Of a stretch of DNA of 64,000 bases, positions 37,880 to 56,696 are shown piece after piece; the first letter of the stretch is position 1, and every line of letters starts with the position of its first letter. Below the pieces are notes generated by a model, which was given only the letters and a program-made list of their open reading frames with translations, was not told the DNA's origin and made no database searches. Both the position numbers and the translations under genes were made by a program. This DNA is from Thermoanaerobaculia bacterium (GTDB lineage: Bacteria > Acidobacteriota > Thermoanaerobaculia > Multivoradales > Multivoraceae), in assembly GCA_963664405.1 (NCBI GenBank), contig OY761158.1:3136001-3200000 (forward strand), written 5' to 3'.

Positions 37880-37881
37880 CC

Positions 37882-38223
37882 TTGCATAGCCCCTATCTCC
37901 GCCGCCGCCCGGTCGAGAACCTGGTGCTGGTGCGTGAACGGGACCGGCGCCGCGCGCGCGAGCTTGCTCGTCTCCTCTTCGGCCTCCTGCCGCTCGCGGC
38001 TGCTCTTCTCAGCTACACCTGGGTGCACACCGAGATCCTTCAGGCTGGTTACTCGGTTCGCTCTCTCGAAGATCGGCTCGAGGTCCTCGATCGCAGCGAG
38101 CGCCGGCTGCGCCTAGAGATAGCTTTTCTCTCCAGCCCGCAGAGAGTGGAGGCCGCGGCGGCGAGCGATCTGGGCATGGTATTCCCGACTCTGGAACAAA
38201 TGGTCTTCGTGGATCAGCGGTGA
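37882..38223 (+). CDS. ftsL: Cell division protein FtsL
   Basis: TM helix plus leucine zipper; lies between rsmH and ftsI. Confidence 0.85.
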   Translation: MHSPYLRRRPVENLVLVRERDRRRARELARLLFGLLPLAAALLSYTWVHTEILQAGYSVRSLEDRLEVLDRSERRLRLEIAFLSSPQRVEAAAASDLGMVFPTLEQMVFVDQR

Positions 38224-41441: not shown

Positions 41442-42831
41442 GGCAGCAGCTGCGATGAAAGGCCAACTCATTTCGGGCAGCCCGGATCGCGTTTTCAGCG
41501 GGGCGGCGCTCGACTCTCGGGTGGTTTCCGGAGGCGAGCTCTTCTTTGCTCTCGAGGGAGAGCAGAGTGACGGGCATCGCTTCGTCGCAGACGCGGCCTC
41601 TCGGGGTGCGGTGGGCGCCGTCGTTGAGCGCTTATCGGAGGCTGCGCTTCCCGACGACTTTGGCCTGATTCGAGTTCCCTCGACCTTGGAGGCGCTGTAC
41701 GCTCTCACCCGCCATGTGCGTCAAGCGGTTCCGCGCCAGCTCGTCGGCGTCACCGGATCCGCCGGCAAGACTACGACCAAGACTCTCCTCGCGGCGATGC
41801 TGGCCGAAGAGTTCTCCACCGCTTCGAGCCAGGGCAATTTGAACAATCTCTTCGGCTTCCCGCTGTCTCTCCTCTCCATCCCCGACGACTCGCAGTGGAT
41901 GGTGGCTGAGATGGGCATGTCAGAGCCCGGGGAGCTGGCGGGCGTGAGTCGCCTCGGGCGGCCGGACGTGGTGGTTCTCACCAATGTTGCTCCCGCCCAC
42001 CTCGCCGCTTTTGGAGAGGTTCGGGCGATTGCCGAGGCGAAGGCGGAGATTTTCGAGGGACTAGCTGAGCAGGGGACGGTGGTGGCGAACGCCGATGACC
42101 CGGAGATCGTGCGCATCACACTCCGTCATCGCTCCCGCAGTGGCTGTCGGGTGGCGTGGTGGAGCGCCAAGGGTCAGGCACCGGGTGAAGAACAGCCACA
42201 ACTCCTCGTGCGGAGCCTCGAATGCCCGGTGGCTGGGGAGCCCGGCAGCCGATTCGAGCTCTGGGCCGGAGCCGAGAGCGCCGAGCTGCGGCTTGATCTT
42301 CTCGGCCTTCACAATGTCGAGAACTGCCTTGCGGCGGCGACTGCAGCTCACCTGTGCGGAGTGAGTCTGGAGGCGATCGCAAGAGCGGTGGAGCAGGTGC
42401 AAGCAGCTCCGATGCGAGGCGTGATGGTCGATCTGGGTGTGGGTGCCAGAGTCTACGATGACTCCTACAATTCCAACCCCGAGGCGGTGGCCAGGGCTCT
42501 CACGGCGGCGGCCGACATTCCGGCCGGACGCCACTGGGCGATTCTTGGCGAGATGCTCGAGCTCGGCGAGGGTGCGGAGACCTTCCACCTCGAAGTGGGA
42601 CGTCGGGCTGCGAGCCTCGGTTTCGATCCGGTGGTGGGCGTCGGCGAGCTCGCCCGTGCGCTGGTCGTCGGCGCCGGCGAGAAGGGCGTACGGACCCACT
42701 GGTTCGCGACTGCCGCGGAGGCGGCGGACGCCGCCGAGGACGAGGTTCGCGCCGAAGACCTGCTACTGGTCAAGGGGTCCCGCGGTGTTGGGCTCGAGGT
42801 TGTCGTCGAGCGGCTCAGGAAAGACGGCTAG
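41419..42831 (+). CDS. murF: UDP-MurNAc-pentapeptide synthetase
   Basis: GVTGSAGKTTTK, EMGMS, DSYNSNP and LVKGSRG motifs. Confidence 0.95.
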   Translation: MARRRLSEAAAAMKGQLISGSPDRVFSGAALDSRVVSGGELFFALEGEQSDGHRFVADAASRGAVGAVVERLSEAALPDDFGLIRVPSTLEALYALTRHVRQAVPRQLVGVTGSAGKTTTKTLLAAMLAEEFSTASSQGNLNNLFGFPLSLLSIPDDSQWMVAEMGMSEPGELAGVSRLGRPDVVVLTNVAPAHLAAFGEVRAIAEAKAEIFEGLAEQGTVVANADDPEIVRITLRHRSRSGCRVAWWSAKGQAPGEEQPQLLVRSLECPVAGEPGSRFELWAGAESAELRLDLLGLHNVENCLAAATAAHLCGVSLEAIARAVEQVQAAPMRGVMVDLGVGARVYDDSYNSNPEAVARALTAAADIPAGRHWAILGEMLELGEGAETFHLEVGRRAASLGFDPVVGVGELARALVVGAGEKGVRTHWFATAAEAADAAEDEVRAEDLLLVKGSRGVGLEVVVERLRKDG

Positions 42832-42836
42832 GCAAG

Positions 42837-43910
42837 ATGCTGTATCACCTTCTCTTTCCGCTTCACGAGAGCTACGCGGCTTTCAACGTTTTCCGCTACA
42901 TCACTTTTCGCGCGGCGGGCGCAGCGCTCACAGCCTTGGTTCTCTCGCTGCTGCTCGGGCCGTGGGCCATCCGCACCTTGCGCCGGTTATCAGTAGGGCA
43001 GGAGATACGCGAGGAAGGCCCGAGGGCTCATCAGAGCAAGGCGGGAACGCCGACCATGGGTGGACTGCTCATCCTCTTCTCGCTAACCGTGCCAACTCTA
43101 CTCTGGGCCCAACTGAACAACAGCTACGTGTGGTTGGCAATGACCTCGACCCTGGCGTTTGGCGCCATCGGCTTCACCGACGATTTCCTCAAGGTCAAGC
43201 GGCGCAACAACAAAGGCCTCAGCGCGCGGGTGAAGCTCGCTCTCCAACTTCTCGTCGCCGTAGGCTTGGCCGCAGCCCTATTGGCGATCTCCTTCGACCA
43301 GACATTGGCTTTTCCCTTCCTCAAGAGGCTGGTCGTCGATCTCGGAGTCTTTTACATCGGTGTCGTGGTTTTGGTGTTGGTTTCCAGCACGAACGCGGTG
43401 AACCTGACCGACGGTCTCGACGGCCTGGCCATCGGTGCCACTCTCATCGTCGCCGCCACCTATGCGATCTTCACCTACATCGCCGGACATCGGGTCGTTG
43501 CTGAGTATCTGCAGGTGGTCCATGTGGCCGACGTTGGCGAGGTGGCTGTCTTCTGCAGTGCGCTCGTCGGCGCCAGCCTCGGCTTCCTGTGGTTCAACTG
43601 CCACCCGGCTGAGATGTTCATGGGCGATGTCGGCTCTCTGGCTATCGGTGGCGCGATCGGCACCGTCGCCATTCTTTCCAAGCAGGAGATCCTTCTGCTC
43701 GTTGCCGGGGGCCTGTTCGTACTCGAGGCTCTGTCGGTGATTCTCCAGGTGGGCTCTTTCAAGTCGCGTGGCCAGCGCGTTTTTCGCATGGCTCCGCTCC
43801 ATCATCACTTCGAGCTAAAAGGTTGGGAGGAGCCGAAGGTCATTGTTCGCTTCTGGATTCTGGCCATCCTCTTCGCCCTGCTCAGTCTGTCGACCCTGAA
43901 GCTGCGATGA
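42837..43910 (+). CDS. mraY: Phospho-MurNAc-pentapeptide transferase
   Basis: KAGTPTMGG, NAVNLTDGLDGL, FMGDVGS and APLHHHFE motifs. Confidence 0.97.
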   Translation: MLYHLLFPLHESYAAFNVFRYITFRAAGAALTALVLSLLLGPWAIRTLRRLSVGQEIREEGPRAHQSKAGTPTMGGLLILFSLTVPTLLWAQLNNSYVWLAMTSTLAFGAIGFTDDFLKVKRRNNKGLSARVKLALQLLVAVGLAAALLAISFDQTLAFPFLKRLVVDLGVFYIGVVVLVLVSSTNAVNLTDGLDGLAIGATLIVAATYAIFTYIAGHRVVAEYLQVVHVADVGEVAVFCSALVGASLGFLWFNCHPAEMFMGDVGSLAIGGAIGTVAILSKQEILLLVAGGLFVLEALSVILQVGSFKSRGQRVFRMAPLHHHFELKGWEEPKVIVRFWILAILFALLSLSTLKLR

Positions 43911-45280
43911 GGGTGCCATGGAGCGAGAAGGAGTGGGAGCGGGTGATGGTGTACGGATTGGGTCGCTCGGGGCTGGCCGCTGCCGCCTTCCTTCGCTCGC
44001 GAGGAGTGACTGTGGTCGGAGTTGATCGCCGCGAAGAGCTGGATCTGGGCTCCCTGGCCGGAGACCCGGGCTTGGAGCTGAGGCTGGGAGCGGCGTCGAC
44101 TCTGCCCGACGCGATCGACGCGGTGGTGCTGAGCCCCGGCGTTCCCCGTCAGCGGCCGATGGCCCGAGAGGCAGATGCCCGCGGCATTCCGGTGATCGCC
44201 GAAGTCGAGCTCGCCTTTCCCTTTCTCGACGGGCCGGTACTGGCGATCACGGGAAGTAACGGCAAGAGCACGACAGCGGCTCTGACATCCCAGATTCTTC
44301 GCTGCGCCGGTCTACCGGAAGTTCTCTGTGGCAATTTCGGCGAGCCTCTCTGCTCCAAGATTGACGGAGCGGTGGGGCGGATCTTCATCGTCGAGCTGTC
44401 CAGCTTCCAGCTGGAAAGTGTGCATCTATTCTCTGCTCAGGCCGCGGCTCTGCTGAACATCTCACCCGATCACCTCGATCGCTATCCAGACGTCGCCGCC
44501 TACGCCGCAGCCAAAGCGAGGGTCTTCGAGCGCCAGGGCACCGGTTCTACGGCTGTTCTCAACGCTGAGGATCAGCGGGTCATGGACACCCTGGGCGGAA
44601 TTGAGCATGCCCGTAAGCGCTTCTTCTCGCGCCGCCGCCGGGTGACGGACGGCTGTTATGCGGCGGATGGAGTGGTCGTCGAAGCTGCCCCTGGGAGCGA
44701 TGACGATGAGCTCTTTGCGATCGACGAGATTATTCTCGAGGGGACCCACAATCTCGAGAACGCGATGGCTGCCGCGCTTCTCGCCCGGGCCGTGGGTGCA
44801 CAGCGCCAGAGCGTACGTCGAGGAGTCGGCTCTTTTGCGGGTCTACCCCATCGGATGCAGAAGGTTTCGCAAAGTGGCGGGTTCAGCTGGTACGACGACT
44901 CGAAGGGAACCAATGTCGGTGCTACCCGCGAGTCGCTGGAGGGATTCCCCGGCCATAGCGTTCACCTCATTCTTGGCGGGCAGAGCAAAGGAGCGGACTT
45001 CCTCGAGCTGCGTGGAATCGTGGCGAGTAAGGCCCGAGCTGTGTACCTGATCGGAGAGGCGGCCGACGACATCGCCACCGCTCTCGAAGGTGCCGCACCC
45101 ATCGTTCGTGCCGGCACCTTGGACGAGGCGGTGCGCCAGGCCGCCGCCCGGGCCGAGGGGTCCGAGTCGGTCGTTCTGTCCCCGGCCTGCGCGAGCTTCG
45201 ATCAGTTTGACAGCTTCGAGCACAGAGGACGGCGCTTCCAACAGTTGGTTGCCGAGCTCGACGGAGCCTCAGATGCCTAA
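43907..45280 (+). CDS. murD: UDP-MurNAc-L-Ala:D-Glu ligase
   Basis: GLGRSG, ITGSNGKST, ELSSFQL, DSKGTN and SPACASFD motifs; ATGA overlap with mraY. Confidence 0.95.
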   Translation: MRVPWSEKEWERVMVYGLGRSGLAAAAFLRSRGVTVVGVDRREELDLGSLAGDPGLELRLGAASTLPDAIDAVVLSPGVPRQRPMAREADARGIPVIAEVELAFPFLDGPVLAITGSNGKSTTAALTSQILRCAGLPEVLCGNFGEPLCSKIDGAVGRIFIVELSSFQLESVHLFSAQAAALLNISPDHLDRYPDVAAYAAAKARVFERQGTGSTAVLNAEDQRVMDTLGGIEHARKRFFSRRRRVTDGCYAADGVVVEAAPGSDDDELFAIDEIILEGTHNLENAMAAALLARAVGAQRQSVRRGVGSFAGLPHRMQKVSQSGGFSWYDDSKGTNVGATRESLEGFPGHSVHLILGGQSKGADFLELRGIVASKARAVYLIGEAADDIATALEGAAPIVRAGTLDEAVRQAAARAEGSESVVLSPACASFDQFDSFEHRGRRFQQLVAELDGASDA

Positions 45281-46352
45281 GAAGAGGGCTTTTGACAGGC
45301 CGCTCTTTGCGGTTGTCGTCATCCTTCTGGGACTCGGCGTGGTGATGGTCTATTCGGCCAGTGCCCCGGACGAGGTGAGTGGTGGTGGTCTGGCCCCCTT
45401 CGCCAAGCAGGGATTGGCGTCTGCACTCGGTCTTCTGGCGATGGCGGTAGCGATGCACGTCGACTATCTCCAGCTCAAGCGCCCCGCTGTTCTCTACGGC
45501 ATCGTGCTCGGGGTCCTCGCCCTTCTCGTTGCCGTCCTTTTCGCCTCGCCTTTGAACAACACCAAACGGTGGTTCTTCATAGGCGGCATCTCGGTACAGC
45601 CCTCGGAGCTGGCGAAGATCGCCGTGGTCTTGTTTGTCGCCTATCACCTCGACAGGAAGGCGGAGAGCGTGAATCAGCCGGCGGTGCTGGTTCCCTGTGT
45701 CTCCTTCGGCCTCTTCTGCGTGGTGCTGATCTTGCTTCAACCCGACTTCGGCACTGCTGGGCTGATCCTGGGAATCGCGGGGCTGATGCTCTTTTATGGC
45801 GGCCTGGCCTGGCGCTATGCCCTCTTCGCCTCGCTGATCTCACTTCCCGCACTTTGGTTTCTGATCGTTCGCGTTCCCTACCGGCTAAAGCGCGTTCTCG
45901 CCCACTTGAACCCTGAAAGCGATCCCCTGGGAGCGGGCTTTCAGCCGCTCCAGTCGATGATCGCCGTCGGCTCGGGAGGAGTGCCGGGGCTCGGCCTGGG
46001 GCAGAGTGTGCAGAAGCTCTACTTTCTTCCTTTCGCTGAGTCGGACTTCATCTACTCGATTCTCGCGGAAGAGCTCGGGCTGTTCGGCTCGGTTGGTGTG
46101 CTTCTTCTCTTTTTGACGCTGTTCTGGCGTGGAATCCGTGCCGGCAACCGCGCGCCTGATGAGTTTGGCCGTTTTCTGGCCTGGGGCCTGTCGTCGTTGA
46201 TCCTGGTCCAGGCGCTCATCAATATCAGCGTTTCGGTGGCTCTATTGCCGACCACCGGCATGCCGCTGCCGTTGATCTCCTACGGCGGCTCGTCTCTCGT
46301 AACTACGCTCCTCGCCTGTGGCTTGGTGCTCAATGTTTCCCAGCACGGATGA
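45273..46352 (+). CDS. ftsW: SEDS peptidoglycan polymerase FtsW
   Basis: QPSELAK, QPDFG, SDFIY..LAEELG and LPLISYGGSS motifs. Confidence 0.95.
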   Translation: MPKKRAFDRPLFAVVVILLGLGVVMVYSASAPDEVSGGGLAPFAKQGLASALGLLAMAVAMHVDYLQLKRPAVLYGIVLGVLALLVAVLFASPLNNTKRWFFIGGISVQPSELAKIAVVLFVAYHLDRKAESVNQPAVLVPCVSFGLFCVVLILLQPDFGTAGLILGIAGLMLFYGGLAWRYALFASLISLPALWFLIVRVPYRLKRVLAHLNPESDPLGAGFQPLQSMIAVGSGGVPGLGLGQSVQKLYFLPFAESDFIYSILAEELGLFGSVGVLLLFLTLFWRGIRAGNRAPDEFGRFLAWGLSSLILVQALINISVSVALLPTTGMPLPLISYGGSSLVTTLLACGLVLNVSQHG

Positions 46353-47430
46353 TGATGTGGGCAAGAGGGCACTCTTGGCGGGCGGCGGCAGCGGGGGTCA
46401 TGTATTCCCAGCTCTGGCAGTCGCCGACGAGCTCGTGGAGCGAGGATGGCAAGTGAGCTTCGCCGGCACGGCAGAGGGTATGGAGGCGAGACTCGCGGCC
46501 TCGCGGGGCTTCGACTTTCACCCTCTCGCCGCATTGGCGGTACGTGGCCGCGGCCTGGGCCAGCGCTGGCGCGCCGCGAGAGTTGTGATGCGCTCGACCC
46601 TTCAGGCCCGCAACTTGGTACGGCGATTGGGGGCGGTTGCAGTGGTCGCTACCGGTGGCTATGCCTGTGTACCGGCGGCCCTGGGTGGCTTCCTGGCCCG
46701 GCGTCCGCTGTTGTTGGTAGAGCCGAACGCGATGCCGGGTCTGGCGAATCGATTTCTGTCGTTCTTCGCCAAACAGGCGGCAGTGGCTTGGGACGAGACC
46801 GGAAACCATCTGCACTGTCCTACCGAGCGCACCGGGGTGCCTGTGCGCCGCGAATTCTTTGCTATCGAGGCGCCGACGACTTTGAGCGGAGAGATTCGTC
46901 TCTTGGTGCTGGGAGGCAGCCAGGGCGCACAGGCGCTCAACCGAGTCATCCCCGGAGTGCTCGAGACGCTGTCGCAGACTCTGGACCTTCGCATGCGCGT
47001 CGTTCACCAAGCCGGGCGAGGGAAAGTCGAGGAAACGAGGGCGGGCTACCAAGCCGGCCGAGTCGACGCCGAGGTCGTGGCCTTTCTCGAAGACGTTCCG
47101 ACCGCAATGTCGGAATCGGATCTCGTTCTCTCTCGCGCCGGTGCGATCACACTGGCGGAGATCTGTGCTGCCGGACGACCCGCGCTGCTCTTTCCGCTCG
47201 CACTCGCGGGCGCCCATCAGCTCCAGAACGCCCGTGCCCTCGAGCGGGTCGGTGCGGCCGAAGTAGTGGAGCCGGAGGGCCTGGAGCCGGAGCGTCTAGT
47301 TCAGGTGCTCACTGGACTCCTCGAGGACTCGCGCCTTCTGGAGATGGCTCACGCCTCCCGCGCATTGGCAGCGCCGGATGCCGCGAGCCGAATCGCCGAC
47401 CAGTTGGAAGGAATGGTGGGGGGGCGATGA
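46333..47430 (+). CDS. murG: Lipid II GlcNAc transferase
   Basis: GGGSGGHVFPA, TGGY, GGSQGA and RAGAIT motifs; start uncertain (46333 or 46357). Confidence 0.95.
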   Translation: MFPSTDDDVGKRALLAGGGSGGHVFPALAVADELVERGWQVSFAGTAEGMEARLAASRGFDFHPLAALAVRGRGLGQRWRAARVVMRSTLQARNLVRRLGAVAVVATGGYACVPAALGGFLARRPLLLVEPNAMPGLANRFLSFFAKQAAVAWDETGNHLHCPTERTGVPVRREFFAIEAPTTLSGEIRLLVLGGSQGAQALNRVIPGVLETLSQTLDLRMRVVHQAGRGKVEETRAGYQAGRVDAEVVAFLEDVPTAMSESDLVLSRAGAITLAEICAAGRPALLFPLALAGAHQLQNARALERVGAAEVVEPEGLEPERLVQVLTGLLEDSRLLEMAHASRALAAPDAASRIADQLEGMVGGR

Positions 47431-48815
47431 TGTTTCGGCACTTTGCCGGTCTGTCCCATGTCCACTTCGTGGGGGTAGGTGGAGCGGGCATGTGCGGCAT
47501 CGCCGAGGTGCTCCTGGACTATGACCTCGAGGTGAGCGGCTCGGACCTCGCCTCGAATGACACCACGTCGCGCTTGGCCGACCTAGGAGTAACGGTTTTC
47601 GAGGGCCACGACGCAGCCCATGTCGATACCGCGGACCTGGTCGTGATCTCCTCGGCGGTTCCGGCGGAGAACCCCGAAGTCAGAGCCGCGGTGGAACGGG
47701 GGATCCCGGTCGTACGCCGCGCCGAGATGCTGGCCGAGCTGATGCGCTTGAAGTACGGCATCGCGGTGGCCGGCTCCCACGGCAAGACCACGACCACATC
47801 GTTGGTTGGTCTTCTGCTCACTGAGGGAGGGCTCGACCCGACGGTGATCGTCGGCGGGCGATTGCGGGTCACTGGCACCGGTGCCCGGCTTGGTAAGAGT
47901 GATTACCTGGTAGCCGAGGCAGATGAGTTCGACCGTAGCTTCCTTAGTCTGGCGCCCATCATCGCGGTGCTGACCTCGATTGACAGGGAGCATTTGGACA
48001 CCTACCGCGATATGGAAGATATTCGGAGCGCGTTCGTCACCTTCGCGCAGAAGGTGCCCTTCTTCGGTCAGGTCATCGTGTGTCTCGACGACGCAGAGAT
48101 TCAGGAGATCCTGCCCCGATTGAAGGATCGCCGCGTAGTCACTTACGGCCTCTCGCCCCAGGCGGAGCTGGCGGCGGTCGATCTCGAGCTCGATGCCGAC
48201 GGTAGCTCATTCACCGTCAGGTCCCTCAAAGAGGGAGTGCTGGGTCGCATTCGACTGCCGATGCCGGGCTTGCACAACGTCAGGAACGCCCTCGCTGCGA
48301 TCGCTGTCGGCCTCGGTCTCGGTCTCGACTTCGACTCCTTCGCCACTTCCCTCGCGGGCTTCGGCGGCGTGCATCGACGCTTCGAGCGGCTCGGAGAGTG
48401 GTTGGGCGCTACCGTTATCGACGACTACGCGCACCACCCCACCGAAGTAGCGGCCACTCTCGAGGCAGCTCGGCAAGTCTTCCCCGAATCTCGCATACAC
48501 GTGGTTTTCCAGCCCCATCTCTTCAGCCGCACGCGTGACTTCGCGGACGACTTCGGCAGGGCCCTGATGGCGGCCGACGCGGCGGTGGTTACCGAGATCT
48601 ATGCATCTCGTGAGTCGCCGCTCACGGGTGTAGACGGTGAGCTCGTGGTGGCTGCCGCGCGCAGTTGTGGGCACAGGAACGTTCGCTTCTGTGGCGAGTG
48701 GCGTAATGCGGTTGAGATTCTCCGCTCGAGTGTCAAGCCCGGTGACGCGGTACTCACGCTCGGAGCCGGTGACGTCTATTTGCTTGCGCGCGAACTGGTG
48801 GAGGAGTCGTCGTGA
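47427..48815 (+). CDS. murC: UDP-MurNAc:L-Ala ligase
   Basis: HFVGVGGAGM, GSHGKTTT, EADEFD and DDYAHHPTE motifs; true start 47427, not 46446. Confidence 0.96.
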   Translation: MMFRHFAGLSHVHFVGVGGAGMCGIAEVLLDYDLEVSGSDLASNDTTSRLADLGVTVFEGHDAAHVDTADLVVISSAVPAENPEVRAAVERGIPVVRRAEMLAELMRLKYGIAVAGSHGKTTTTSLVGLLLTEGGLDPTVIVGGRLRVTGTGARLGKSDYLVAEADEFDRSFLSLAPIIAVLTSIDREHLDTYRDMEDIRSAFVTFAQKVPFFGQVIVCLDDAEIQEILPRLKDRRVVTYGLSPQAELAAVDLELDADGSSFTVRSLKEGVLGRIRLPMPGLHNVRNALAAIAVGLGLGLDFDSFATSLAGFGGVHRRFERLGEWLGATVIDDYAHHPTEVAATLEAARQVFPESRIHVVFQPHLFSRTRDFADDFGRALMAADAAVVTEIYASRESPLTGVDGELVVAAARSCGHRNVRFCGEWRNAVEILRSSVKPGDAVLTLGAGDVYLLARELVEESS

Positions 48816-49648
48816 GGATCGCTTCGGGCGAGTTCCTTCGTTTCAGCCATCCGCGTCGACGGCGGCGCTTGCATCCGGTAGCTCGCGACTTCGGGCGGGC
48901 TCTTCGCGTTGTGGCGGTGCTGGTCCCGCTGATGATCTTTGTCTACTGGTTGATTGCCGCCGAGACCTTTGCCCTCGCGGAGATCGAGATCAAGGAGAAC
49001 CCGCGAGTTCCCGCTTCGTGGATGCGGCGGGCGATCGAAGCCGAGCTTGGCGGCAATCTGGTGATCCTGCCGCTCAGCCGCGTGCGTGAGCGCCTTTCCG
49101 GCCACCCCTGGCTGGCGAATGTCGAGGTTCACAAGGAGCTTCCGGATCGCCTTTTCGTCGAGGTCGATGAGCGGCTGGCAGTGGCCGTTCTCGAAGCTGA
49201 AGACGGTGCCTACTTCATCGATGGCTCGGGTCGGCGTATCGCGTCGGTTCGACCCGGAGAGAGTGCGGTGGGGCTGTTGCGACTTGCGAGCGGCGGAAGC
49301 GGATCAGAAGTTCCTGCGCCGCTGGCGCTTCAGGAGAGGTTGTGTCTCGAGAAGGCGATTCAGCTGAGTCGCGCACTCGCCGACGCGGATCTCGAGAATT
49401 GGAGATCGAAGCTTCTCCGTATCGAAGTGGTGGGAGACGACGACTTTCGGCTCTTTGCCGAGAATCTTCCCTTTCCGGTGCTGGTGCGCTCGGCCAGTGT
49501 GGTGGCGGGGGCACGAGTGCTTGACGCTCTCCTGCCCGAGATTCTTGCTCGAACGAGCTCGGTGTACGAGGTGGATCTTCGCTTTCAGGGGCGAGTAGTG
49601 GTCAGACCTGAGATGAATGGCGATCGGCGACAACAGAAGGAGACGTGA
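48812..49648 (+). CDS. ftsQ: Cell division protein FtsQ/DivIB
   Basis: TM helix, POTRA-like region (PWL..V.V.K.LPD.L.V.V.ER) and C-terminal VDLRF. Confidence 0.85.
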   Translation: MRIASGEFLRFSHPRRRRRLHPVARDFGRALRVVAVLVPLMIFVYWLIAAETFALAEIEIKENPRVPASWMRRAIEAELGGNLVILPLSRVRERLSGHPWLANVEVHKELPDRLFVEVDERLAVAVLEAEDGAYFIDGSGRRIASVRPGESAVGLLRLASGGSGSEVPAPLALQERLCLEKAIQLSRALADADLENWRSKLLRIEVVGDDDFRLFAENLPFPVLVRSASVVAGARVLDALLPEILARTSSVYEVDLRFQGRVVVRPEMNGDRRQQKET

Positions 49649-51768
49649 GGGATATGCCCAAGCCTGAAAAATTTATTGTCGGAATCGATATCGGTTCTTC
49701 GAAAGTAGCCGTCTTGATCGCTATGCCGGGGGAGAACGGCGAGTTGGAGGTCGTAGGCAAGGGGCTCTCTCCCAATCGGGGGACCCGTCGCGGCAATATC
49801 GTCAACGTCGAGACGACGGTCGAGGCCTTGAAGCAGGCCTGCGAGGAGGCGGAGGTGATGGCCGGAGTCGAGATCTCCGAGGCCTTCGTCGGCGCGGCAG
49901 GGCCCGACGTACGCAGCGTGAACTCGAGAGGAATGGTCTCGGTTGCCCGCAAGGACCGCGAAATTACGCGTCAGGACATCGAGAGGGTGTTGGAGGCGGC
50001 CCAATCCGCGGCGTTGCCCTCGGATCGCGACATTCTCCACGCCATTCCCCAGGAGTTCGTGGTCGACGACCAGGGCGGGATAACGGATCCGCTGGGGATG
50101 CTCGGGAGTCGGCTCGAGGTCATGGTCCACTTGGTGACAGGTCACTCGACTCAATCGAAGACCCTGCTGACCTGCGTGAACCGAGCCGGGATCGAGGTGG
50201 TGGAGATCGTTTTCGAGCCGCTGGTGACCGCCCTTGCGGTGATGAGTCCCGACGAGCGCGAGCTTGGGGCCCTGCTGGTGGACATCGGGTCAGGCACCAC
50301 GGGCTATGCCTACTACTGCAACTCCGAGGTTCTCCACAGTGCAGTTCTTCCCATCGCGGCCGGCCACTTCACCAATGACTTGGCGATGGTCCTACGCACA
50401 CCCTTCGCCGAGGCAGAGGCCATCAAGGCGAAGAACGGCTGTTGTCTGGCGAGCCTTGTCGACTACGACGAAGGGATCTCGGTGCCGAGTGTCGGTGGCG
50501 GGGGCGCCAGGGTGGTGGCCCGACGCGAGTTGACCGAGATTCTGCAGCCGAGGGCGGAGGAGATTTTTCATCTGATTCGCGAAGACATCGCGAAGAGTTT
50601 GGGCGAGCCGAGCCTACGGGGTGGGATTGTGCTCACCGGCGGAGGGGCTCAGCTGGATGGGCTGATAGAGGTGGCGGAGCAGGTTTTCGATGCTACCGCC
50701 CGAGCGGGACTGCCCGGCGGTCTTGGAGGGCTGGTGGATGTCATTCATAGCCCGATCTGGTCGGCGGCTGCAGGTCTCCTTATTCACGGACAGGGAGTGT
50801 TGGCGAGTCGGCCGCAGCAGGGGAATCGAGGTTTCGGCGTACGGGCCATGGTGGGCAGTTTGCGAGGAATGTTCTCGGACCTGCATACGTTGACCGTCAA
50901 TGACGCCAAGGGGTCTCAGCCGTTCTTCTCTCTCGATCCAGAGCACAGCGACCTCGAGACCGCCGCCGCGGTACTTCTACCGATCCCCTACGAGCGCACG
51001 GCGAGCTGGCGGAAAGGTACTGCAGCAGGACCCGAGGCCATCCGCGAGGCCTCGGCGCACGTCGAGCTATGGGATCTCGACACCAACAGCGAGCCCTATC
51101 GCCATGGCATCGCTCAGGAGCAGGCGCTTAACTTTCAGGGTCCGGCCGACGAGCTCGCCAAGAGCGTCGAAGAACGAGTCGGGGGGGTCCTCGACCGCCG
51201 CCAGATCCCGATCGTGCTCGGCGGCGATCACTCGGTCTCCATCGGAGCGATCGCGGCAACTGCTAGGCGCTTCCCCAAGCTATCGGTGCTACAGATCGAC
51301 GCCCACGCCGACACTCGAGAGACTTATCAAGGATCGACCCACAGCCACGCCTGCGTCATGGCTCGGGCGCGGGAGCTCTGTCCCATCGTGCAAGTGGGTT
51401 TGCGCAGCGCCGACAAGGAGGAGCTGCCCGCGCTCGAAGCTGGCCGCGTGTTCTGGGCGAATGACATCGCTCGCGATCGCCGGGCGACCTGGATTCACAA
51501 GGCGGTCGAGCAGCTCAGCGAGGAGGTCTACGTCACCATCGACATCGACGCCTTCGACCCTGCCATAGTGCCAGCCACTGGAACCCCCGAGCCCGGCGGC
51601 CTCGACTGGTATCAGGTGAACGACCTCCTGGCCGCGACGGCTCGCCAAAGTCGCGTCGTGGCCTTCGACGTCGTCGAGCTGATGGGGGGACATGCGCCTT
51701 CGGCGTTCACCGCCGCCAAGCTCATCTACCGTTTCTTGGCGGAGATCCTGAGGGAGAAAGGGAAGTAA
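49645..51768 (+). CDS. ftsA: FtsA (codons 1-413) fused in frame to agmatinase (707 aa total)
   Basis: GIDIGSSK, VDIGSGTT and VLTGGG motifs and amphipathic tail ...GSLRGMFSDL, with no stop before the ureohydrolase domain. Confidence 0.9.
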   Translation: MRDMPKPEKFIVGIDIGSSKVAVLIAMPGENGELEVVGKGLSPNRGTRRGNIVNVETTVEALKQACEEAEVMAGVEISEAFVGAAGPDVRSVNSRGMVSVARKDREITRQDIERVLEAAQSAALPSDRDILHAIPQEFVVDDQGGITDPLGMLGSRLEVMVHLVTGHSTQSKTLLTCVNRAGIEVVEIVFEPLVTALAVMSPDERELGALLVDIGSGTTGYAYYCNSEVLHSAVLPIAAGHFTNDLAMVLRTPFAEAEAIKAKNGCCLASLVDYDEGISVPSVGGGGARVVARRELTEILQPRAEEIFHLIREDIAKSLGEPSLRGGIVLTGGGAQLDGLIEVAEQVFDATARAGLPGGLGGLVDVIHSPIWSAAAGLLIHGQGVLASRPQQGNRGFGVRAMVGSLRGMFSDLHTLTVNDAKGSQPFFSLDPEHSDLETAAAVLLPIPYERTASWRKGTAAGPEAIREASAHVELWDLDTNSEPYRHGIAQEQALNFQGPADELAKSVEERVGGVLDRRQIPIVLGGDHSVSIGAIAATARRFPKLSVLQIDAHADTRETYQGSTHSHACVMARARELCPIVQVGLRSADKEELPALEAGRVFWANDIARDRRATWIHKAVEQLSEEVYVTIDIDAFDPAIVPATGTPEPGGLDWYQVNDLLAATARQSRVVAFDVVELMGGHAPSAFTAAKLIYRFLAEILREKGK
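50890..51768 (+). CDS. speB: Agmatinase moiety (possible internal TTG start)
   Basis: GP.AIR.AS, GGDHS, IDAHAD, DIDAFD and GTPEPGG motifs. Confidence 0.9.
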   Translation: MTVNDAKGSQPFFSLDPEHSDLETAAAVLLPIPYERTASWRKGTAAGPEAIREASAHVELWDLDTNSEPYRHGIAQEQALNFQGPADELAKSVEERVGGVLDRRQIPIVLGGDHSVSIGAIAATARRFPKLSVLQIDAHADTRETYQGSTHSHACVMARARELCPIVQVGLRSADKEELPALEAGRVFWANDIARDRRATWIHKAVEQLSEEVYVTIDIDAFDPAIVPATGTPEPGGLDWYQVNDLLAATARQSRVVAFDVVELMGGHAPSAFTAAKLIYRFLAEILREKGK

Positions 51769-51888
51769 GCAGTAAGCAGTAAGAAGTAAAGGCAGGGAGC
51801 GGAGAGAAGGCAGTATTACTTCTTACTGACTACTGTTTACTTCTTTACTCCGGCTCCCCTTCCCTGTCTTCACTGCTTACTGCTTACT
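51764..51888. repeat. Heptamer tandem repeats (AGTAAGC)n and their complement; likely bidirectional terminator
   Basis: AGTAAGC AGTAAGC AGTAAGA AGTAAA on the left; degenerate TTACT units and GCTTACT GCTTACT on the right. Confidence 0.7.
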
Positions 51889-52935
51889 CCTCCCCTCAAG
51901 CACAGCGGCGAAGATCAAGGGCGCGACGATCGTCGCATCTGACTCGATCAAAAACATCGGAGTCTCCGCATCGAGCTTTCCCCAGGTGATCTTCTCGCTC
52001 GGGTAGGCACCCGAGTACGAACCGTAGCTGGTGGTCGAATCGGAGATCTGACAGAAGTAGCCCCAGTAAGGACAATCGCGGCGTAGATCCTGCCGGATCA
52101 TCGGCACTACACAGATCGGAAAATCGCCCGCTATGCCCCCCCCGATCTGGAAGAAGCCCATAGTTCGCACTGTCTGTTCCCGGGAGACGTCGAGATCGTC
52201 ACCGAGATCGTTTGAAGGAGTGGCCGCGAGTCTCTCGAGATCGGCAAGCGGTTTCTCCATCGTACGAGCCGCGTACCACTCGGCGAGAGCCGCCATCGTC
52301 TCTACGCCGGTCCGCATCGCTTCGTGGCTTTCGAGCGAGCCATCGATCACTCTGGCCGCAAAGACATTTCCGAGCGTCGAGTCCTCCCAGCCTGGAACAA
52401 AGAGAGGCAGATCGCGCTCTTGAGCAGCCACCAGCCAGCTGTCGCGAGGGTCGATCTGATAGCTGCTCTCGAGCGCGCCACTCGCGAGCAATTGGTAGAG
52501 GTGCTCGTGGGGGAAGCACCTCCGGCCTGCACTCTCTGCTGCTTTCCACAGCTCGAGGAGCGGTCCCTCCACTGCCCTAAAAGCCTCCTCCTCAGGAATG
52601 CAGGTGTCGGTGACCCGATTCAGCCCCTTCCGCGCCAGCTCCTTCTCGTCTCCAGCCGTCAGGTTGCGCCACGCTGGTACCCGAACATAGTGATCGTGGG
52701 CAACGAGGTTGAACAGATCTTCTTCCAGGTTCGCTCCGGTGCACGAGATCGCGTGAACTTTCTCGCGGCGGATCATCTCCGCCAAGGACACTCCAAGCTC
52801 AGCCGTAGACATCGCACCGGCGACCGCCATCAACATCTCTCCGCCCGAGGCAAGATGTTCGATGTAGCCCTCGGCCGCCTCCCTCAAAGTGGCCGCGTTG
52901 AAGTGGAGATAGTTACGCCGTAGGAATTCCCTCAT
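51877..52935 (-). CDS. Deoxyhypusine synthase-like protein (probable homospermidine synthase)
   Basis: AGAMSTAELG, TGANLEED, RVTDTCIPEE, IGGGIAGD and YSGA.P.EKITWGK motifs. Confidence 0.9.
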   Translation of the reverse strand: MREFLRRNYLHFNAATLREAAEGYIEHLASGGEMLMAVAGAMSTAELGVSLAEMIRREKVHAISCTGANLEEDLFNLVAHDHYVRVPAWRNLTAGDEKELARKGLNRVTDTCIPEEEAFRAVEGPLLELWKAAESAGRRCFPHEHLYQLLASGALESSYQIDPRDSWLVAAQERDLPLFVPGWEDSTLGNVFAARVIDGSLESHEAMRTGVETMAALAEWYAARTMEKPLADLERLAATPSNDLGDDLDVSREQTVRTMGFFQIGGGIAGDFPICVVPMIRQDLRRDCPYWGYFCQISDSTTSYGSYSGAYPSEKITWGKLDAETPMFLIESDATIVAPLIFAAVLEGRSKQ

Positions 52936-53037
52936 CTAGGCCCTTTACTCTCAGCGCCCAGCCCAACGTTCCACTCGGTAAGCTCACCCAGCCGTCTCCG
53001 AAGCCAGGCGTTCGTCCGTTCCTCGGACGGACGCCAC

Positions 53038-53100
53038 GCGCCGTCCTCGGCGCCAGACAACAACAAAGGTCGGGGAATGGTACACACCATTCCCCGGCCT
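53038..53100 (-). repeat. Composite REP-like element (motif A plus palindrome B) after the ftsZ stop
   Basis: GCGCCGTCCTCGGCGCCA followed by GGGAATGGT-ACAC-ACCATTCCC; same layout as 9271-9327. Confidence 0.75.
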
Positions 53101-54422
53101 CAGTCCATCTGCTTGCGCAGCACGGTAGGGATGTCGAAATCATCGACACCTGACCAATTCGGACCGAAGCCCCCCTTGTCCTTGTCGTGGTTGTGCGCCA
53201 GTACTTTGCGGTAGAACGGAAGCTCCTCCTCAGCCTCGGCTTCGGCCTCCAGCTCTTCAGGCGGCCGCACCTCTGGAGCGCCGGCCAACTCCATCTGATC
53301 GAGCGGTTCAGCTTCCTTGACCGGAGCCTCCTCCTGTGACCGTGGCCACATCGAGGCCGGTTCGTCATCCTCCTCGGAGCGAAGAACACTGGCAGAGGGC
53401 GAGATCTCCGGCTCGAACGCCTGGTCTCCGTCCTTGAAGCCGGTGGCGATCACCGTGACTTTGATCTCGTCGGCCATTTCATCGTCGATGACCAAACCGG
53501 AGATGATGTTCGCGTCGGGATCGACCATGTCGGAAATGGTCCGCGCCGCCTCCGCCACTTCGTGCAAAGTGATGTCGCCGCCGCCGGTAATGTTGATGAG
53601 CACACCGCGGGCGCCCTGGATGCTGGTCTCTTCCAGCAGAGGAGACGAGACTGCAGCCTGCGCGGCCTCGATCGCTCGACTCTCTCCCTTGGCCAGGCCA
53701 GTGCCCATGAGCGCGATACCCATGCCGCTCATGATCGTGCGCACATCTGCGAAGTCCGCATTGACCTCACCAGGGATGGTAATCAGGTCACTGATACCCT
53801 GAACGCCCTGACGCAAGACATCGTCGGCGATGAGGAAGGCCTCGGCGAGGGGAGTCCCGCGGTCGACGAAGTTCAGAAGACGTTCGTTGGGAATAGCGAT
53901 CACCGTATCGACCGACTCGCGAAGCTCGTCGAGCCCCTTCGCCGCCAGGTGCATGCGCCTACGTCCTTCGAACGAGAAGGGTTTGGTGACCACGGCAACG
54001 GTGAGAGCACCGACTTCCGCAGCCAACGAGGCGATGACCGTGATCGCGCCGGTGCCGGTTCCGCCGCCCAGGCCGGCGGCGAGAAAGATCATGTCGGAGC
54101 CATCGAGAAGCTCGAGTATGCGCTCCGAGTCCTCCAGTGCAGCCTTGCGACCGATCTCGGGATCAGAGCCCGCGCCCAGGCCGCGAGTGATCAGCTTCCC
54201 CAATTGAAGCCGCGTCGGCGCGCGGCACTTACTGAGAGCCTGGGTGTCTGTATTAGCTGCAATGAACTCGACGCCGTTGAGCTTGGAGTCGATCATTCGA
54301 TTCACCGCGTTGCCGCCACCACCACCCACACCAATGACCTTGATGTCGGCAGGAAGAACCTCCCGGTTCTCCATGCTGATGGCCAATCCTGCGTCACTCT
54401 TCTGCTCGTCGAATAGGATCAT
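53100..54422 (-). CDS. ftsZ: Cell division protein FtsZ (inverted relative to the dcw cluster)
   Basis: [18 protein letters not shown] and NADFAD motifs; C-terminal [11 protein letters not shown]; SD AAAGGGG before ATG 54422. Confidence 0.97.
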
Positions 54423-54485
54423 CCGCCAACCCCTTTCTCGGGCTTTATTCTCATGTCTACGATTCACTGAGCTCTATTTGCCGGC

Positions 54486-56444
54486 CTAGAGTATCTCTTC
54501 CGCCTCTAAATAGGTGTAGCCCTTCAGCTCAGCTTCGTAGTGGTCGACAATGGCTTGAGCTTCTTCTTCGCTGAGCCGGCCGCTGGCGACCGCCCGCTGT
54601 GTCGTAGCCCGAAGCCGCGATCGGAGAGCGTTTACGTCGTACTGGAGATAAGAGAGGACTTCGGCCGCAGTGTCCCCGGCGACGGCCTCGTCGATCACCA
54701 CTTGTCCCTCATCGCCGAGACTCAGGTGTACGACGTGGGTGTCGCCGAAGAGGTTGTGAAGATCGCCGAGGGTCTCCTGGTAGGCGCCGGTGAGGAAAAC
54801 TCCGAGGTAGTATTCCTCGCCCGGGCGGAGCTCGTGGAGGGGTAGTGTGCGCTCGATGTCGCGTAGGGCGACGAAGCGATCGATCTTGCCGTCGGAGTCG
54901 CAGGTCATATCGGCAAGGACCCCGCGCCGCGTCGGCTTCTCGTCGAGTCGATGGATCGGAGCGATGGGGAAGAGCTGATTGATTGCCCAGGAGTCCGGAA
55001 GAGATTGGAAAACGGAAAAGTTGCAGAAGTAGATGTCGGCCAAGATGCGCTCCAGCTCTTCGAGCTCTTCCGGCATCGAGGGCATGCTCTGGGCGAGTCG
55101 ATAGATCGCGGCGCAGGTGGTCCAGAAGAGGCGCTCACAAAAGCCTCGCCACGTGAGTGACAGATAGCCGAGGTTGAAGAGATTCAGCGCTTGCTCATAA
55201 GCCTGGAGCGCTCCGTGGTAGCACTCGACGGCGCGGCGCTCCTCGAGTTGGCGGTGAGACTCGATGAGGTCCAAAACGGGTTGGGCGATCTCCGCTTGGC
55301 CGATCTCCTCGAGATCCTCAGGTACGGCGAAGTCGTCGAGCCCCGATCTACCCACGACATTGACGATGAGCAGGCTCTGGTAGGCCGCGATGGCGCGACC
55401 CGACTCGGTGACGATCGTCGGATGGGGGATCCTCTTCTCGTTGCACACTGACGTGACTCGATAGACGACCTCACTGGCGTACTCGCTCAGGCTGTAATTC
55501 CTCGATGAAGGGAAGTTGGTCTTGGACCCGTCGTAGTCCACGGCGAGGCCGCCACCGACGTCGAGATAGCGCAGTCCCTCGGCCCCCATCCGTACCAGCT
55601 CGGCGTAGATGTGCGTGAGCTCACCGATCGCATCCTTGACCCGTCGGATGTCGTGCAATTGGCTGCCGACGTGACAGTGCAGCAGCTCGAGGCAGTCCTC
55701 CAGCCCGCGCGAGCGGAGCCGCTCCGCGAGCTCGATGACCTCGCTGACAAAGAGACCGAATTTGGACTTGACCCCCGACGAACCCCGCCACCGGCCGGCG
55801 CCTTCGCTCGATAGCTTGACCCTGACGCCGAGACGAGGGCGAAGGCCCTGCTCCTCGGCGTTACGCAGGATGAGCTCGAGCTCGTCGAGCTTTTCTACCA
55901 CCGGGACGATGTCGCGCCCGAGCTTTTGCGCCAGCGTTACCGTCTTTATGTAGTCGTTGTCTTTGAACCCGTTGCAGAGAATCAGCCTGGGCCCTGGATC
56001 ATCGGCCATGGCCATGACCGCCAGCAGCTCCGGCTTCGAGCCCACTTCCAGGCCGAAGCCGTAGGCCCGGCCGTAGCGGTAGACCTCCTCGACCACGGCG
56101 CGCTGTTGGTTGACCTTGATCGGATAGACCGCCAGGTAGCCGCCCTGATACGCATTTGCTTCGATCGCGGTATCGAAGGCGTCGCGAAGCGCGCCGAGTC
56201 GATGGCTCAGCAGATTGGAGAAGCGCAACAAGATCGGTGCAGTGGTGCCTTGCTGGGCGAGACTTTCGATGATTTCGAGTACGTCGATCTCACGTTGGTC
56301 GTCTTTCTCCGGCCGAACGACGAGATGACCGTCGCTCCTGATGGCGAAATAGCCCTGACTCCACCCGTCGATCTGATAGAGCTCGGCGGCGTCCTCGGGT
56401 GTCCAGGACCGCTCTAGTGGCGAGCCTCTCGCGATAGTGCCCAC
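54486..56444 (-). CDS. speA: Biosynthetic arginine decarboxylase
   Basis: YPIKVNQ, GSKPEL, HVGSQ, DVGGGL, ESGRA, TCDSDG and HNLFG motifs. Confidence 0.96.
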   Translation of the reverse strand: MGTIARGSPLERSWTPEDAAELYQIDGWSQGYFAIRSDGHLVVRPEKDDQREIDVLEIIESLAQQGTTAPILLRFSNLLSHRLGALRDAFDTAIEANAYQGGYLAVYPIKVNQQRAVVEEVYRYGRAYGFGLEVGSKPELLAVMAMADDPGPRLILCNGFKDNDYIKTVTLAQKLGRDIVPVVEKLDELELILRNAEEQGLRPRLGVRVKLSSEGAGRWRGSSGVKSKFGLFVSEVIELAERLRSRGLEDCLELLHCHVGSQLHDIRRVKDAIGELTHIYAELVRMGAEGLRYLDVGGGLAVDYDGSKTNFPSSRNYSLSEYASEVVYRVTSVCNEKRIPHPTIVTESGRAIAAYQSLLIVNVVGRSGLDDFAVPEDLEEIGQAEIAQPVLDLIESHRQLEERRAVECYHGALQAYEQALNLFNLGYLSLTWRGFCERLFWTTCAAIYRLAQSMPSMPEELEELERILADIYFCNFSVFQSLPDSWAINQLFPIAPIHRLDEKPTRRGVLADMTCDSDGKIDRFVALRDIERTLPLHELRPGEEYYLGVFLTGAYQETLGDLHNLFGDTHVVHLSLGDEGQVVIDEAVAGDTAAEVLSYLQYDVNALRSRLRATTQRAVASGRLSEEEAQAIVDHYEAELKGYTYLEAEEIL

Positions 56445-56696
56445 CGGGCGATTCTACGCGCTCCAATCACTTCCGGAGGACGCACCGTCCCGGCGCCAGA
56501 AATTGATTCCCAAGATGAGGCGGAACTCCCGACTTGTGGACCGTAACACCCAAACGTTTAGCGCCTGAGCGGCCCTCGCGGCCGATCTCTGCGTTACGCT
56601 TCCTCGACATAGTCCCCGCTATGCCTGCGTCAGCGCGCCTTGATCTCGACCACGAATGACTCACTCAGCCACTAAACGTTCGAGTGTTACGGTCCA

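Follow-up and report, generated by a model that had tools for sequence, protein, structure and literature searches.

Few features of bacterial division loci are as conserved as the adjacency of ftsA and ftsZ and the free membrane helix at the C-terminus of FtsA. In the window (the whole stretch of 64,000 nucleotides from an uncultured Thermoanaerobaculia bacterium that was analysed here), the ORF map and Pfam give the order ftsA>speB> <dhs <ftsZ <speA (Table 1), which raises the question of how ftsZ and an agmatinase gene came to stand in each other's place. The explanation that we consider highly probable is that the dcw end and a polyamine cluster abutted in the ancestor, and that two breaks were followed by a recent, conservative inversion of 3.6 kb.

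Table 1. Features of the rearranged region and of the dcw cluster upstream of it, with positions in the window
Feature	Position	Strand	Remarks
Upstream dcw cluster	36962..49648	+	rsmH/mraW, ftsI-type PBP, murE, murF, mraY, murD, ftsW, murG, murC, ftsQ
ftsA body	49654..50884	+	Pfam; codons 1-410 and first base of the old last Leu codon
Fused open frame	49654..51768	+	704 aa: FtsA(1-410), His-Thr, full-length agmatinase
Left junction ATAC	50885..50888	+	Read as an extra, inverted copy of the four bases that preceded the old speA/speB break
speB (agmatinase, arginase fold)	50890..51768	+	292 codons from the former TTG start
speB/dhs spacer	51769..51876		Between convergent genes; inside the inverted block, unaltered by the event
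dhs (deoxyhypusine-synthase-like)	51877..52935	-	Pfam DS 3e-37; middle of the inverted block
Terminator-like hairpin, 11 pairs	53071..53096	-	Immediately 3' of the ftsZ stop
ftsZ	53100..54422	-	440 codons from ATG 54422; Pfam Tubulin and FtsZ_C (ORF 53100-54467)
Former ftsA-ftsZ spacer	54423..54490	-	63 nt, including the ribosome-binding site of ftsZ; also old ftsA Leu bases and stop
speA (biosynthetic arginine decarboxylase)	54486..56444	-	652 aa; three Pfam domains
Right junction ATAC (GTAT on + strand)	54491..54494	-	Original copy at the speA 3' end

The ORF at 49645-51768 (+) carries the SHS2_FTSA and FtsA domains at aa 87-377 (PF02491, 4.3e-31; PF14450, 2.4e-35) and an Arginase family domain at aa 441-697 (PF00491, 4e-64), which covers profile positions 2-277 of 280 and is a full-length domain. 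The SpeB translation contains GGDHS, DAHAD, and DIDAFDP stretches, which we take to be the metal ligands. SpeB proteins of relatives start at the same point as the former TTG start; most of them are named agmatinase by their sources and two are named N1-aminopropylagmatine ureohydrolase. Agmatinase is here a putative name given by sequence. Alignments with FtsZ of relatives begin at the Met of ATG 54422. A repeat scan found TAA-carrying 7-nt repeats and nested inverted repeats in the spacer between speB and dhs. The dcw genes from rsmH to ftsQ are all co-directional with ftsA (Pfam, ORFs), and the coding sequences in and around the inverted block appear intact by Pfam. A search of the 6.78-Mb genome returned one match each for ftsZ, ftsA, and speB, indicating that they are single copies. 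An earlier sequence-only reading of this DNA had given the same gene identities and order, and Pfam and the ORFs matched them. It had also listed ftsA and speB as separate ORFs, which was incorrect.

There is no stop codon between ftsA and speB. The open frame encodes 707 aa from a GTG or 704 aa from ATG 49654, and the genome search with ftsA and speB returned a frame of 718 aa. ftsA is without its last codon and its own stop and reads in frame into speB, while speA now ends in ...EEIL and terminates at the TAG that was once the stop of ftsA. Thus, the earlier statement that the inversion destroys no gene was too mild. In E. coli, FtsA has an amphipathic membrane-targeting helix at its extreme C-terminus. 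Here the conserved ...LRGMFSDL stretch precedes 294 more residues instead of L-stop, and the helix would no longer be C-terminal. The nearest GAGG to speB is 22 nt upstream, and thus speB lacks a Shine-Dalgarno sequence of its own close by. No protein spanning both the FtsA and the agmatinase halves was found among the best 150 matches of 1.84 billion representatives. A close strain without the inversion should have supplied a near-identical stand-alone SpeB to the protein database; none of 160-511 aa was found there, and the best match was 67% identical. The window's own 704/707-aa ORF was absent from the same database, so this database is incomplete for the lineage.

In relatives, ftsA is followed directly by ftsZ on one strand (20/20 loci), and FtsA ends in ...DL-L-stop, one codon past the left junction, in all 20. 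The polyamine genes were compared in metagenome loci that hold relatives of this SpeB. Of the 57 loci with sufficient flank, 32 have speA immediately upstream of speB on the same strand; a convergent dhs follows speB in 24/51, and the speA stop and speB start overlap by 4 nt in 23/45. Elsewhere, speA>speB><dhs is the common order, usually with the 4-nt overlap. These counts bore out the description of ftsA-ftsZ and speA-speB as classical pairs, and the comparison of synteny and of FtsA and SpeA C-termini proposed by the sequence-only reading came out in its favour. Judged by gene order, the present arrangement is a derived inversion. ftsZ was next to dhs in none of the 20 ftsZ loci of relatives, and fts genes were found at none of 80 SpeB loci. 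With no such relative, the ancestral adjacency of the two clusters is deduced from this genome alone.

The left breakpoint follows 50884, and the turned segment, 50889-54490, contains ftsZ, dhs, and speB. Bases 54486-54490 (-) comprise the stop codon TAG of ftsA and the last two bases of its old Leu codon. When 50889-54490 was computationally re-inverted and one ATAC was removed, both old states were restored exactly; therefore ATAC was duplicated and no base was lost. The restored FtsA has 411 aa, ends in FSDLL-stop, and is followed by a 63-nt spacer to ftsZ, which falls within the length range of relatives. The restored SpeA ends in ...EEIR, with its TGA overlapping the speB TTG by 4 nt, reproducing the old end AEEIR-stop that had been predicted. 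The junction letters quoted earlier, ATAC at 50885-50888 (+) and GTAT at 54491-54494, are correct. The earlier block, 50885..54494, held as an inversion but not in its limits, since the ATAC at 50885-50888 is an added copy outside the turned part. Two old FtsA ends had also been offered. FSDLL-stop, with ATAC duplicated at a staggered break, is supported by the end of the near-identical FtsA P0001 described below, by the FtsA ends of the 20 relatives, and by the re-inversion, whereas the end that assumed a crossover within ATAC was not upheld. The inversion cost zero bases, and its scar is a 4-nt inverted duplication of ATAC. The two old sites have no microhomology other than one C preceding each break. 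Inverted identity at the junctions extends over 4 nt at most, which by itself is within chance. Chance does not explain, however, that a single flip recovers, to the base, both the normal ends of two genes and two adjacencies that are widely conserved.

It might be argued that an assembler placed the block backwards and that the true order is ftsA>ftsZ ... <speB<speA. The in-frame FtsA-agmatinase ORF appears unphysiological. The genome, probably metagenome-derived, is a single contig of 6.78 Mb for which marker genes indicate 3.73% contamination, and a nearby acyl-CoA dehydrogenase gene has a frameshift that is possibly a sequencing error. However, both junctions lie inside single, independently built contigs from two runs, two studies, and two organism labels: in run X1 (study P1, label A), a contig of 8848 nt covers 49000-56500 unbroken with 2 differences, and in run X4 (study P2, label B), one of 8851 nt does so with 0 differences. 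X1 or X4 may be the source of the assembly, and the other one is then independent. Three further runs contain all sampled 31-mers of 50385-54994 (share 1.00), and the junctions have no repeat able to mislead an assembler. The present arrangement is not a misassembly; the chimera that the sequence-only reading had allowed for is contradicted by these contigs, and we give the backward placement hardly any probability. Nor do we give more to a programmed, reversible inversion, in which a phase-variation switch would toggle ftsZ and speB between two promoters. The breaks coincide exactly with gene boundaries and no coding sequence is lost, which has a designed look, and run X9 may hold the other orientation. 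Against a switch, the two ends share only 4 nt of inverted identity, one copy of which is newly duplicated, and an inverted-repeat scan of 50000-55500 found nothing at the junctions beyond ATAC/GTAT, which speaks against long inverted repeats, IS copies, or site-specific recombination sites there. No recombinase or invertase Pfam family was found among 19 scanned ORFs of 35-64 kb (chosen from 44 of at least 170 aa) or the four locus genes. The X1 and X4 contigs pass both junctions unbranched and in one orientation, although contigs drop rare variants and a minority orientation could be missed. Moreover, ftsA is without its stop codon in the present state, and no switch would require that loss. 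The earlier view that a programmed switch is unsupported agrees with the match of at most 4 nt and with the 19 ORFs.

The order could also be an old and stable arrangement of the lineage rather than the result of a recent inversion. There is no same-genus genome among the species representatives searched, so the tree gives no age, and the genes in and around the block all look intact. We consider great age very improbable. P0001, a 411-aa FtsA on a 2.32-Mb contig that is known as a protein only, is 99% identical (407/410) and ends normally in FSDLL. Run X9 holds a strain that is 1-2% diverged, and two X9 contigs cease to match the window at 54491, exactly the base where the un-inverted form should depart from it; past this base they have unmatched tails of 112 and 36 nt. 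The X9 depth in the bin 50757-51007 is 3.23, and the calculated value is 3.28 with the tails placed at the left junction but 1.01 with them elsewhere. Both old gene ends can be restored to the base at junctions without decay, and over time an FtsA frame that is open through a whole foreign gene should acquire a stop or a new start. X1 and X4, which carry the inverted form, show no more than 2 base differences from the window over 7.5 kb. These comparisons point to a recent inversion; in at least two natural samples it is the dominant form. The orders in relatives and the normal end of P0001 likewise favour the earlier proposal of a recent inversion that swapped ftsZ and speB between the dcw and polyamine clusters.

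The recent inversion would have started from the order murC>ftsQ>ftsA>ftsZ>dhs> <speB <speA, in which the dcw end abutted the speA-speB/dhs polyamine cluster. One double-strand break would have occurred inside the last Leu codon of ftsA and a second at the overlapping speA/speB stop and start, and the piece between them would have been rejoined in reverse with no base lost. The inverted ATAC at both junctions may mark a 4-nt 5' stagger that was filled in and ligated bluntly, possibly by the Ku/LigD end-joining system of this genome. The genes for Ku (PF02735, 162.8 bits) and the LigD polymerase (TIGR02778, 243.1 bits) are both above cut-offs and adjoin at 4.25 Mb. Since both are present, end joining after a staggered break is probably the likeliest mechanism, and the locus fits such an inversion in having two breakpoints, no repeats at the ends, a duplication scar, and the predicted enzymes. 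Whether Ku and LigD themselves performed the rejoining, as the junction pattern and the presence of the two genes suggest, has about an even chance. The same inversion might have arisen by a replication-fork template switch or by topoisomerase-II subunit exchange, which we regard as possible but unlikely. Template switching needs little homology, the old sites share only the single C, and replicative switching could produce the same scar. Type IIA topoisomerases cleave with a 4-nt 5' stagger, and the stagger proposed here matches this geometry. However, a conservative two-junction inversion that duplicates 4 nt in inverted form at one site and joins flush at the other is what fill-in and blunt ligation yield in the textbook case, and this genome encodes the enzymes for it.

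The inversion is not a new kind of genetic system. Like the canonical ftsQ-ftsA-ftsZ dcw end, the locus has a full co-directional rsmH-ftsA series, and the restored ftsA, 63-nt spacer, and ftsZ are as in the 20 relatives, but at present ftsZ is 3.5 kb off on the other strand behind speA, and ftsA has no stop of its own. The same three families as in speA-speB pairs with a convergent dhs-like gene are found, with speB><dhs preserved within the block and the 4-nt overlap of the 23 loci at the restored boundary. In contrast to those pairs, ftsZ and dhs separate speA from speB here, and speB is deprived of the upstream speA sequence with its likely ribosome-binding site. Ku/LigD end-joining rearrangements also have no end homology, a short fill-in duplication, no sequence loss, and encoded Ku and LigD, while the connection to Ku/LigD is circumstantial here. 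Hin/Gin-type and fim-type switches are invertase-driven invertible DNA segments. They likewise invert a segment of a few kb between two promoter contexts, but the inverted repeats here are at most 4 nt, there is no nearby recombinase (19 ORFs), and contigs show one orientation per sample. MurE-MurF chimeras and other natural fusions of dcw genes are reported (PMC10214165) to join enzymes of the same pathway and to recur in many taxa. Those chimeras and the present protein both make one polypeptide of a dcw gene and its neighbour, but FtsA is here joined to an unrelated polyamine enzyme.

ftsZ retains its 63-nt leader and ribosome-binding site, but it is now 3' of speA on the strand opposite to the dcw cluster and is separated from all upstream dcw sequence. 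No terminator-like hairpin was found between speA and ftsZ, and thus ftsZ might be transcribed by read-through from speA. Most agmatinase would be produced as the C-terminal portion of the FtsA fusion and depend on dcw transcription, and the membrane-binding helix of FtsA would be internal. The control of ftsZ by the speA promoter and of speB by MraZ that the sequence-only reading had proposed is likewise putative. It is doubtful, though conceivable, that the FtsA-agmatinase is the working form of both proteins, with ftsZ on the arginine decarboxylase transcript, and that the variant is neutral or advantageous and has spread between two host labels. If so, cell division in a host-associated Acidobacteriota lineage would be wired to arginine and polyamine metabolism, FtsA would work with its membrane helix inside the chain and its tail carrying a bulky oligomeric enzyme, and the spread of the variant between the two host labels would be more than mere tolerance.

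At this locus, a conservative inversion without homology and its 4-nt fill-in scar can be reconstructed to the base, which makes it a clean example from nature. It shows that genes can swap stop codons and that a new two-domain protein can arise in one step. The inversion may serve as a strain marker for the symbiont lineage and as a natural experiment on the robustness of the dcw cluster and the tolerance of its disruption, for this lineage survives in nature with ftsZ off the dcw promoters, an FtsA extended by an enzyme, and speB without its own start context.

The window covers bases 3136001-3200000 of its genome, a single contig of 6.78 Mb with a completeness of 97.05% and a contamination of 3.73% by marker genes, and the closest matches of its FtsA in a protein database search were labelled Acidobacteriota or Thermoanaerobaculia. 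A complete dcw cluster leads into ftsA, and the present order from there is ftsA>speB> <dhs <ftsZ <speA, with the tetranucleotide ATAC at a left junction (50885-50888) and at a right junction (54491-54494). When we re-read the sequence, this gene order and the junction letters quoted in the sequence-only reading were correct. The genes of the locus are ordinary members of their families, and ftsZ, ftsA, and speB are each present as a single copy in the genome. On the minus strand, an acyl-CoA dehydrogenase is split over two overlapping ORFs (56697-57850), with the N and middle domains in 57236-57850 and the C domain in 56697-57239. Near 57290-57310 the frame changes by one base, and the continuation ...GGISGFLIDKGTPGFNVLRRIPMIGG is in another frame. 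The split gene is either a pseudogene or the product of a sequencing indel.

Features of the ftsA-speA locus and of the end-joining genes of the same genome (window positions, except for the last row, which is in contig coordinates of the genome)
Feature	Position	Strand	Content
dcw cluster	36962-49648	+	rsmH, ftsI-type PBP, murE, murF, mraY, murD, ftsW, murG, murC, ftsQ
FtsA + agmatinase ORF	49645-51768	+	FtsA domains within first 377 residues; full arginase-family domain at residues 441-697
Deoxyhypusine-synthase-like gene (dhs)	51877-52935	-	
ftsZ	53100-54467	-	ATG used by relatives at 54422
speA, biosynthetic arginine decarboxylase	54486-56444	-	
Ku + 857-aa LigD-type frame (loci L151, L152)	G000:C1:4252914-4255931		Complete-looking bacterial end-joining pair

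Of 30 relatives from the same family or order, 29 have FtsZ (30 of 31 genomes with the window's own counted), and 20 of the relatives' ftsZ loci were cut out with about 8 kb on each side. In all 20 loci murC, ftsA, and ftsZ are consecutive and co-directional, 18 of the loci also gave a match to ftsQ, and dhs and speA are absent from every one of these flanks. The FtsA frame of all 20 relatives ends with ...DL, one Leu codon, and a stop, which is one codon past the left junction of the window. The missing two bases of the Leu codon and the TAG are found at 54486-54490 on the minus strand, where they serve as the end of speA, so that speA now terminates at the former ftsA TAG. The ftsA-ftsZ spacers in the relatives range from about 22 to 280 nt, and many are near 50-60 nt.

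Of the 30 relatives, 17 have SpeA. Among these 17 speA loci (1.5-kb flanks), one (L056) has the order speA>speB><dhs and another (L064) has dhs divergent from speA. A metagenome scan with SpeB gave 80 loci (L069-L148), the best of them 67% identical; none is from a close strain, and they inform on general gene order only. Of the 57 loci whose upstream flank reaches 600 nt or more, 32 have speA directly before speB in the same direction, and the speA stop and the speB start overlap by 4 nt in 23 of the 45 loci in which both gene ends could be read. No fts or murC gene was present in any of the 80 loci. The top match in a SpeA protein search was only the window's own protein, and the SpeA C-termini vary too much among the relatives to decide between EEIR and EEIL. 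Downstream of speB, dhs is convergent within 400 nt in 24 of 51 loci and co-directional in two. Since speA-speB in these lineages usually has a dhs-like gene as its convergent neighbour, and since one source labels two SpeB relatives (P0306, P0307) as N1-aminopropylagmatine ureohydrolase, the speA-speB-dhs cluster may make a longer polyamine rather than putrescine only.

The older arrangement was reconstructed by a script that removed 50885-50888 and re-inverted 50889-54490. The reconstructed FtsA has 411 aa and ends with ...MFSDLL followed by TAG, and the spacer from ftsA to the ftsZ ATG is 63 nt. The reconstructed SpeA has 652 aa and ends with ...EEIR, and its TGA overlaps the speB TTG by 4 nt, the configuration most often seen elsewhere. 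Turning the block back once recovers both conserved adjacencies and both normal gene ends with no base missing. Judged from this reconstruction, ATAC must originally have been single and at the speA/speB boundary, because it is needed there for the stop; it is now present twice, in inverted orientation. Two ends of FtsA had been considered in the sequence-only reading. FSDLL* with a duplicated ATAC agrees with 20 of 20 relatives and with P0001, a near-identical FtsA protein, all of which end with ...DLL*. The other, a crossover inside an ATAC shared by both sites that altered the FtsA end, is contradicted by the same proteins. The synteny of the relatives, the FtsA C-termini, and the re-inversion all agree with the proposal that a recent inversion swapped ftsZ and speB.

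A misassembly or chimera had also been raised as an explanation of the locus. At least part of 50385-54994 is contained in 20 public sequencing runs from 12 studies, and in 8 of the runs at least half of its sampled words are present. Four runs, each of a different study, were aligned to 49000-56500 as contigs built from each run's own reads. In run X1 (study P1, organism label A) a single contig of 8848 nt spans 49000-56500 with two differences, and in run X4 (study P2, label B) a single contig of 8851 nt spans it with none. Since both contigs pass both junctions unbroken, the inverted arrangement is present in the sequenced DNA of at least two samples, and a misassembly or chimera is very unlikely. 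The assembly may itself derive from X1 or X4; the other run would then be independent of it. Contigs lose rare variants, and a minority orientation may be present in the X1 and X4 samples. Runs X8 and X9 gave short contigs only, and among the pieces listed none bridges the left junction; record 21 of X8 stops at 54486 with no tail. The uncovered parts in these two runs were left out of the evidence.

As for how the inversion was made, the two block ends share no inverted repeat longer than 4 nt, and the two old break sites had only one base in common at the break. No recombinase or transposase family was found among 19 scanned ORFs, picked from the 44 ORFs in 35-64 kb that have 170 aa or more, in keeping with the earlier remark that no invertase was seen. 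The event therefore does not look like an invertase switch, whereas it has the testable features of an illegitimate end-joining inversion: no sequence was lost, and a 4-nt inverted duplication is found at one site only. In such an event, a cut with a 4-nt 5' stagger at the speA/speB site would have been followed by fill-in of both ends, and the middle piece would have turned before all four ends were joined flush by ligation. Genes for Ku (162.8 bits) and for a LigD that has a polymerase domain (243.1 bits, 857-aa frame) lie next to each other at 4.25 Mb, and therefore fill-in and end-joining enzymes are present; we give rejoining by Ku/LigD an even chance. Type IIA topoisomerases cleave with a 4-nt 5' stagger. 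Because the stagger has this geometry, the speA/speB break could possibly have come from an aborted gyrase or topoisomerase IV cut. It is also possible that a replicative template switch made the inversion.

The inversion appears to be young. P0001 is a 411-aa FtsA encoded on a 2.32-Mb contig, in a cluster of 8 member sequences, and it has the length and the C-terminus of the reconstructed FtsA, with three residues different. Since it is identical to the window's FtsA at 407 of 410 positions and ends with ...MFSDLL, the normal ftsA end is found in a lineage about 1% away. Over 7.5 kb, the X1 and X4 contigs with the inversion show no more than 2 differences from the window. In the seawater metagenome run X9, which contains a strain 1-2% diverged from the window, two contigs (records 30 and 31) match the window up to 54491 from either side and then carry unmatched tails: 112 nt after the ftsZ leader and 36 nt after the speA end. 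Position 54491 is the base where the un-inverted sequence would cease matching on both sides, the sharing being a single C before the old ftsA break on one side and ATAC on the other. The X9 depth in the bin 50757-51007 is 3.23; the value calculated with the tails placed at the left junction is 3.28, and without them there it is 1.01. These results are a strong hint, though not proof, that X9 carries the un-inverted form. No near-identical stand-alone SpeB was found in the protein database, the best being 67% identical, which counts against this simple picture because such a SpeB would be expected from a close un-inverted strain. The protein database does contain the window's own SpeA (P0121, on the 6,780,313-base contig) but lacks its 704/707-aa FtsA-SpeB ORF. 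We tentatively read both absences as incompleteness of the database.

At the left junction, ftsA and speB form one uninterrupted reading frame of 704 aa from the ATG at 49654, with the former speB start TTG (50890) in frame with ftsA and no stop between them. The sequence-only reading had the order right and did not mention this single frame. The product, of roughly 77 kDa, would consist of FtsA (residues 1-410), His-Thr, and the whole agmatinase. In FtsA, the ...LRGMFSDL(L) stretch conserved at the C-terminus, which we take from the E. coli literature to be its membrane-targeting amphipathic helix, is now internal. The catalytic-looking agmatinase motifs and the GGGTGTG loop of FtsZ, presumably functional residues, are intact in the translations. 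In a search of 1.84 billion representatives, no protein among the best 150 matches spans both halves of the fusion; all are confined to residues 1-416, except for one that matches 422-701. Thus, the FtsA-agmatinase architecture looks unique to this lineage. A literature search of titles and abstract openings found neither a ftsZ-displacing inversion nor an FtsA-agmatinase fusion in them. Two FtsA-like representatives, P0385 (627 aa) and P0427 (725 aa), have about 300 extra residues, at the C-terminus of one and the N-terminus of the other, with no match to the agmatinase half. There may be other natural FtsA fusions.

The surroundings of the displaced genes suggest altered expression. speB has no GGAG-like motif 5-13 nt from its TTG, the nearest GAGG being 22 nt upstream; in the reconstructed old state, the speA tail supplied a GGAG-like motif. 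ftsZ kept its 63-nt leader. A strong terminator-like hairpin directly follows the ftsZ stop (53096-53071), and none was found between the speA stop and ftsZ. A promoter scan gave no sigma-70-like site relevant to ftsZ or speA, with one such site in the scanned region against 1.2 expected by chance. We infer that ftsZ is now transcribed together with speA and that agmatinase would be made chiefly as the fusion, from dcw transcripts. Transcription from dcw would now enter the convergent speB/dhs spacer. This spacer (51762-51891) is made of 7-nt units with TAA, which place stops in all three frames on both strands and form nested inverted repeats (17-31 nt). In the strain of run X9, one additional unit follows 51761.

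The inversion is a new instance of an already known kind of event. It is also a recent, well-resolved structural variant that affects two essential division genes in an unusual way, and it would matter more if the cell does use the fusion and a joint speA-ftsZ transcript.
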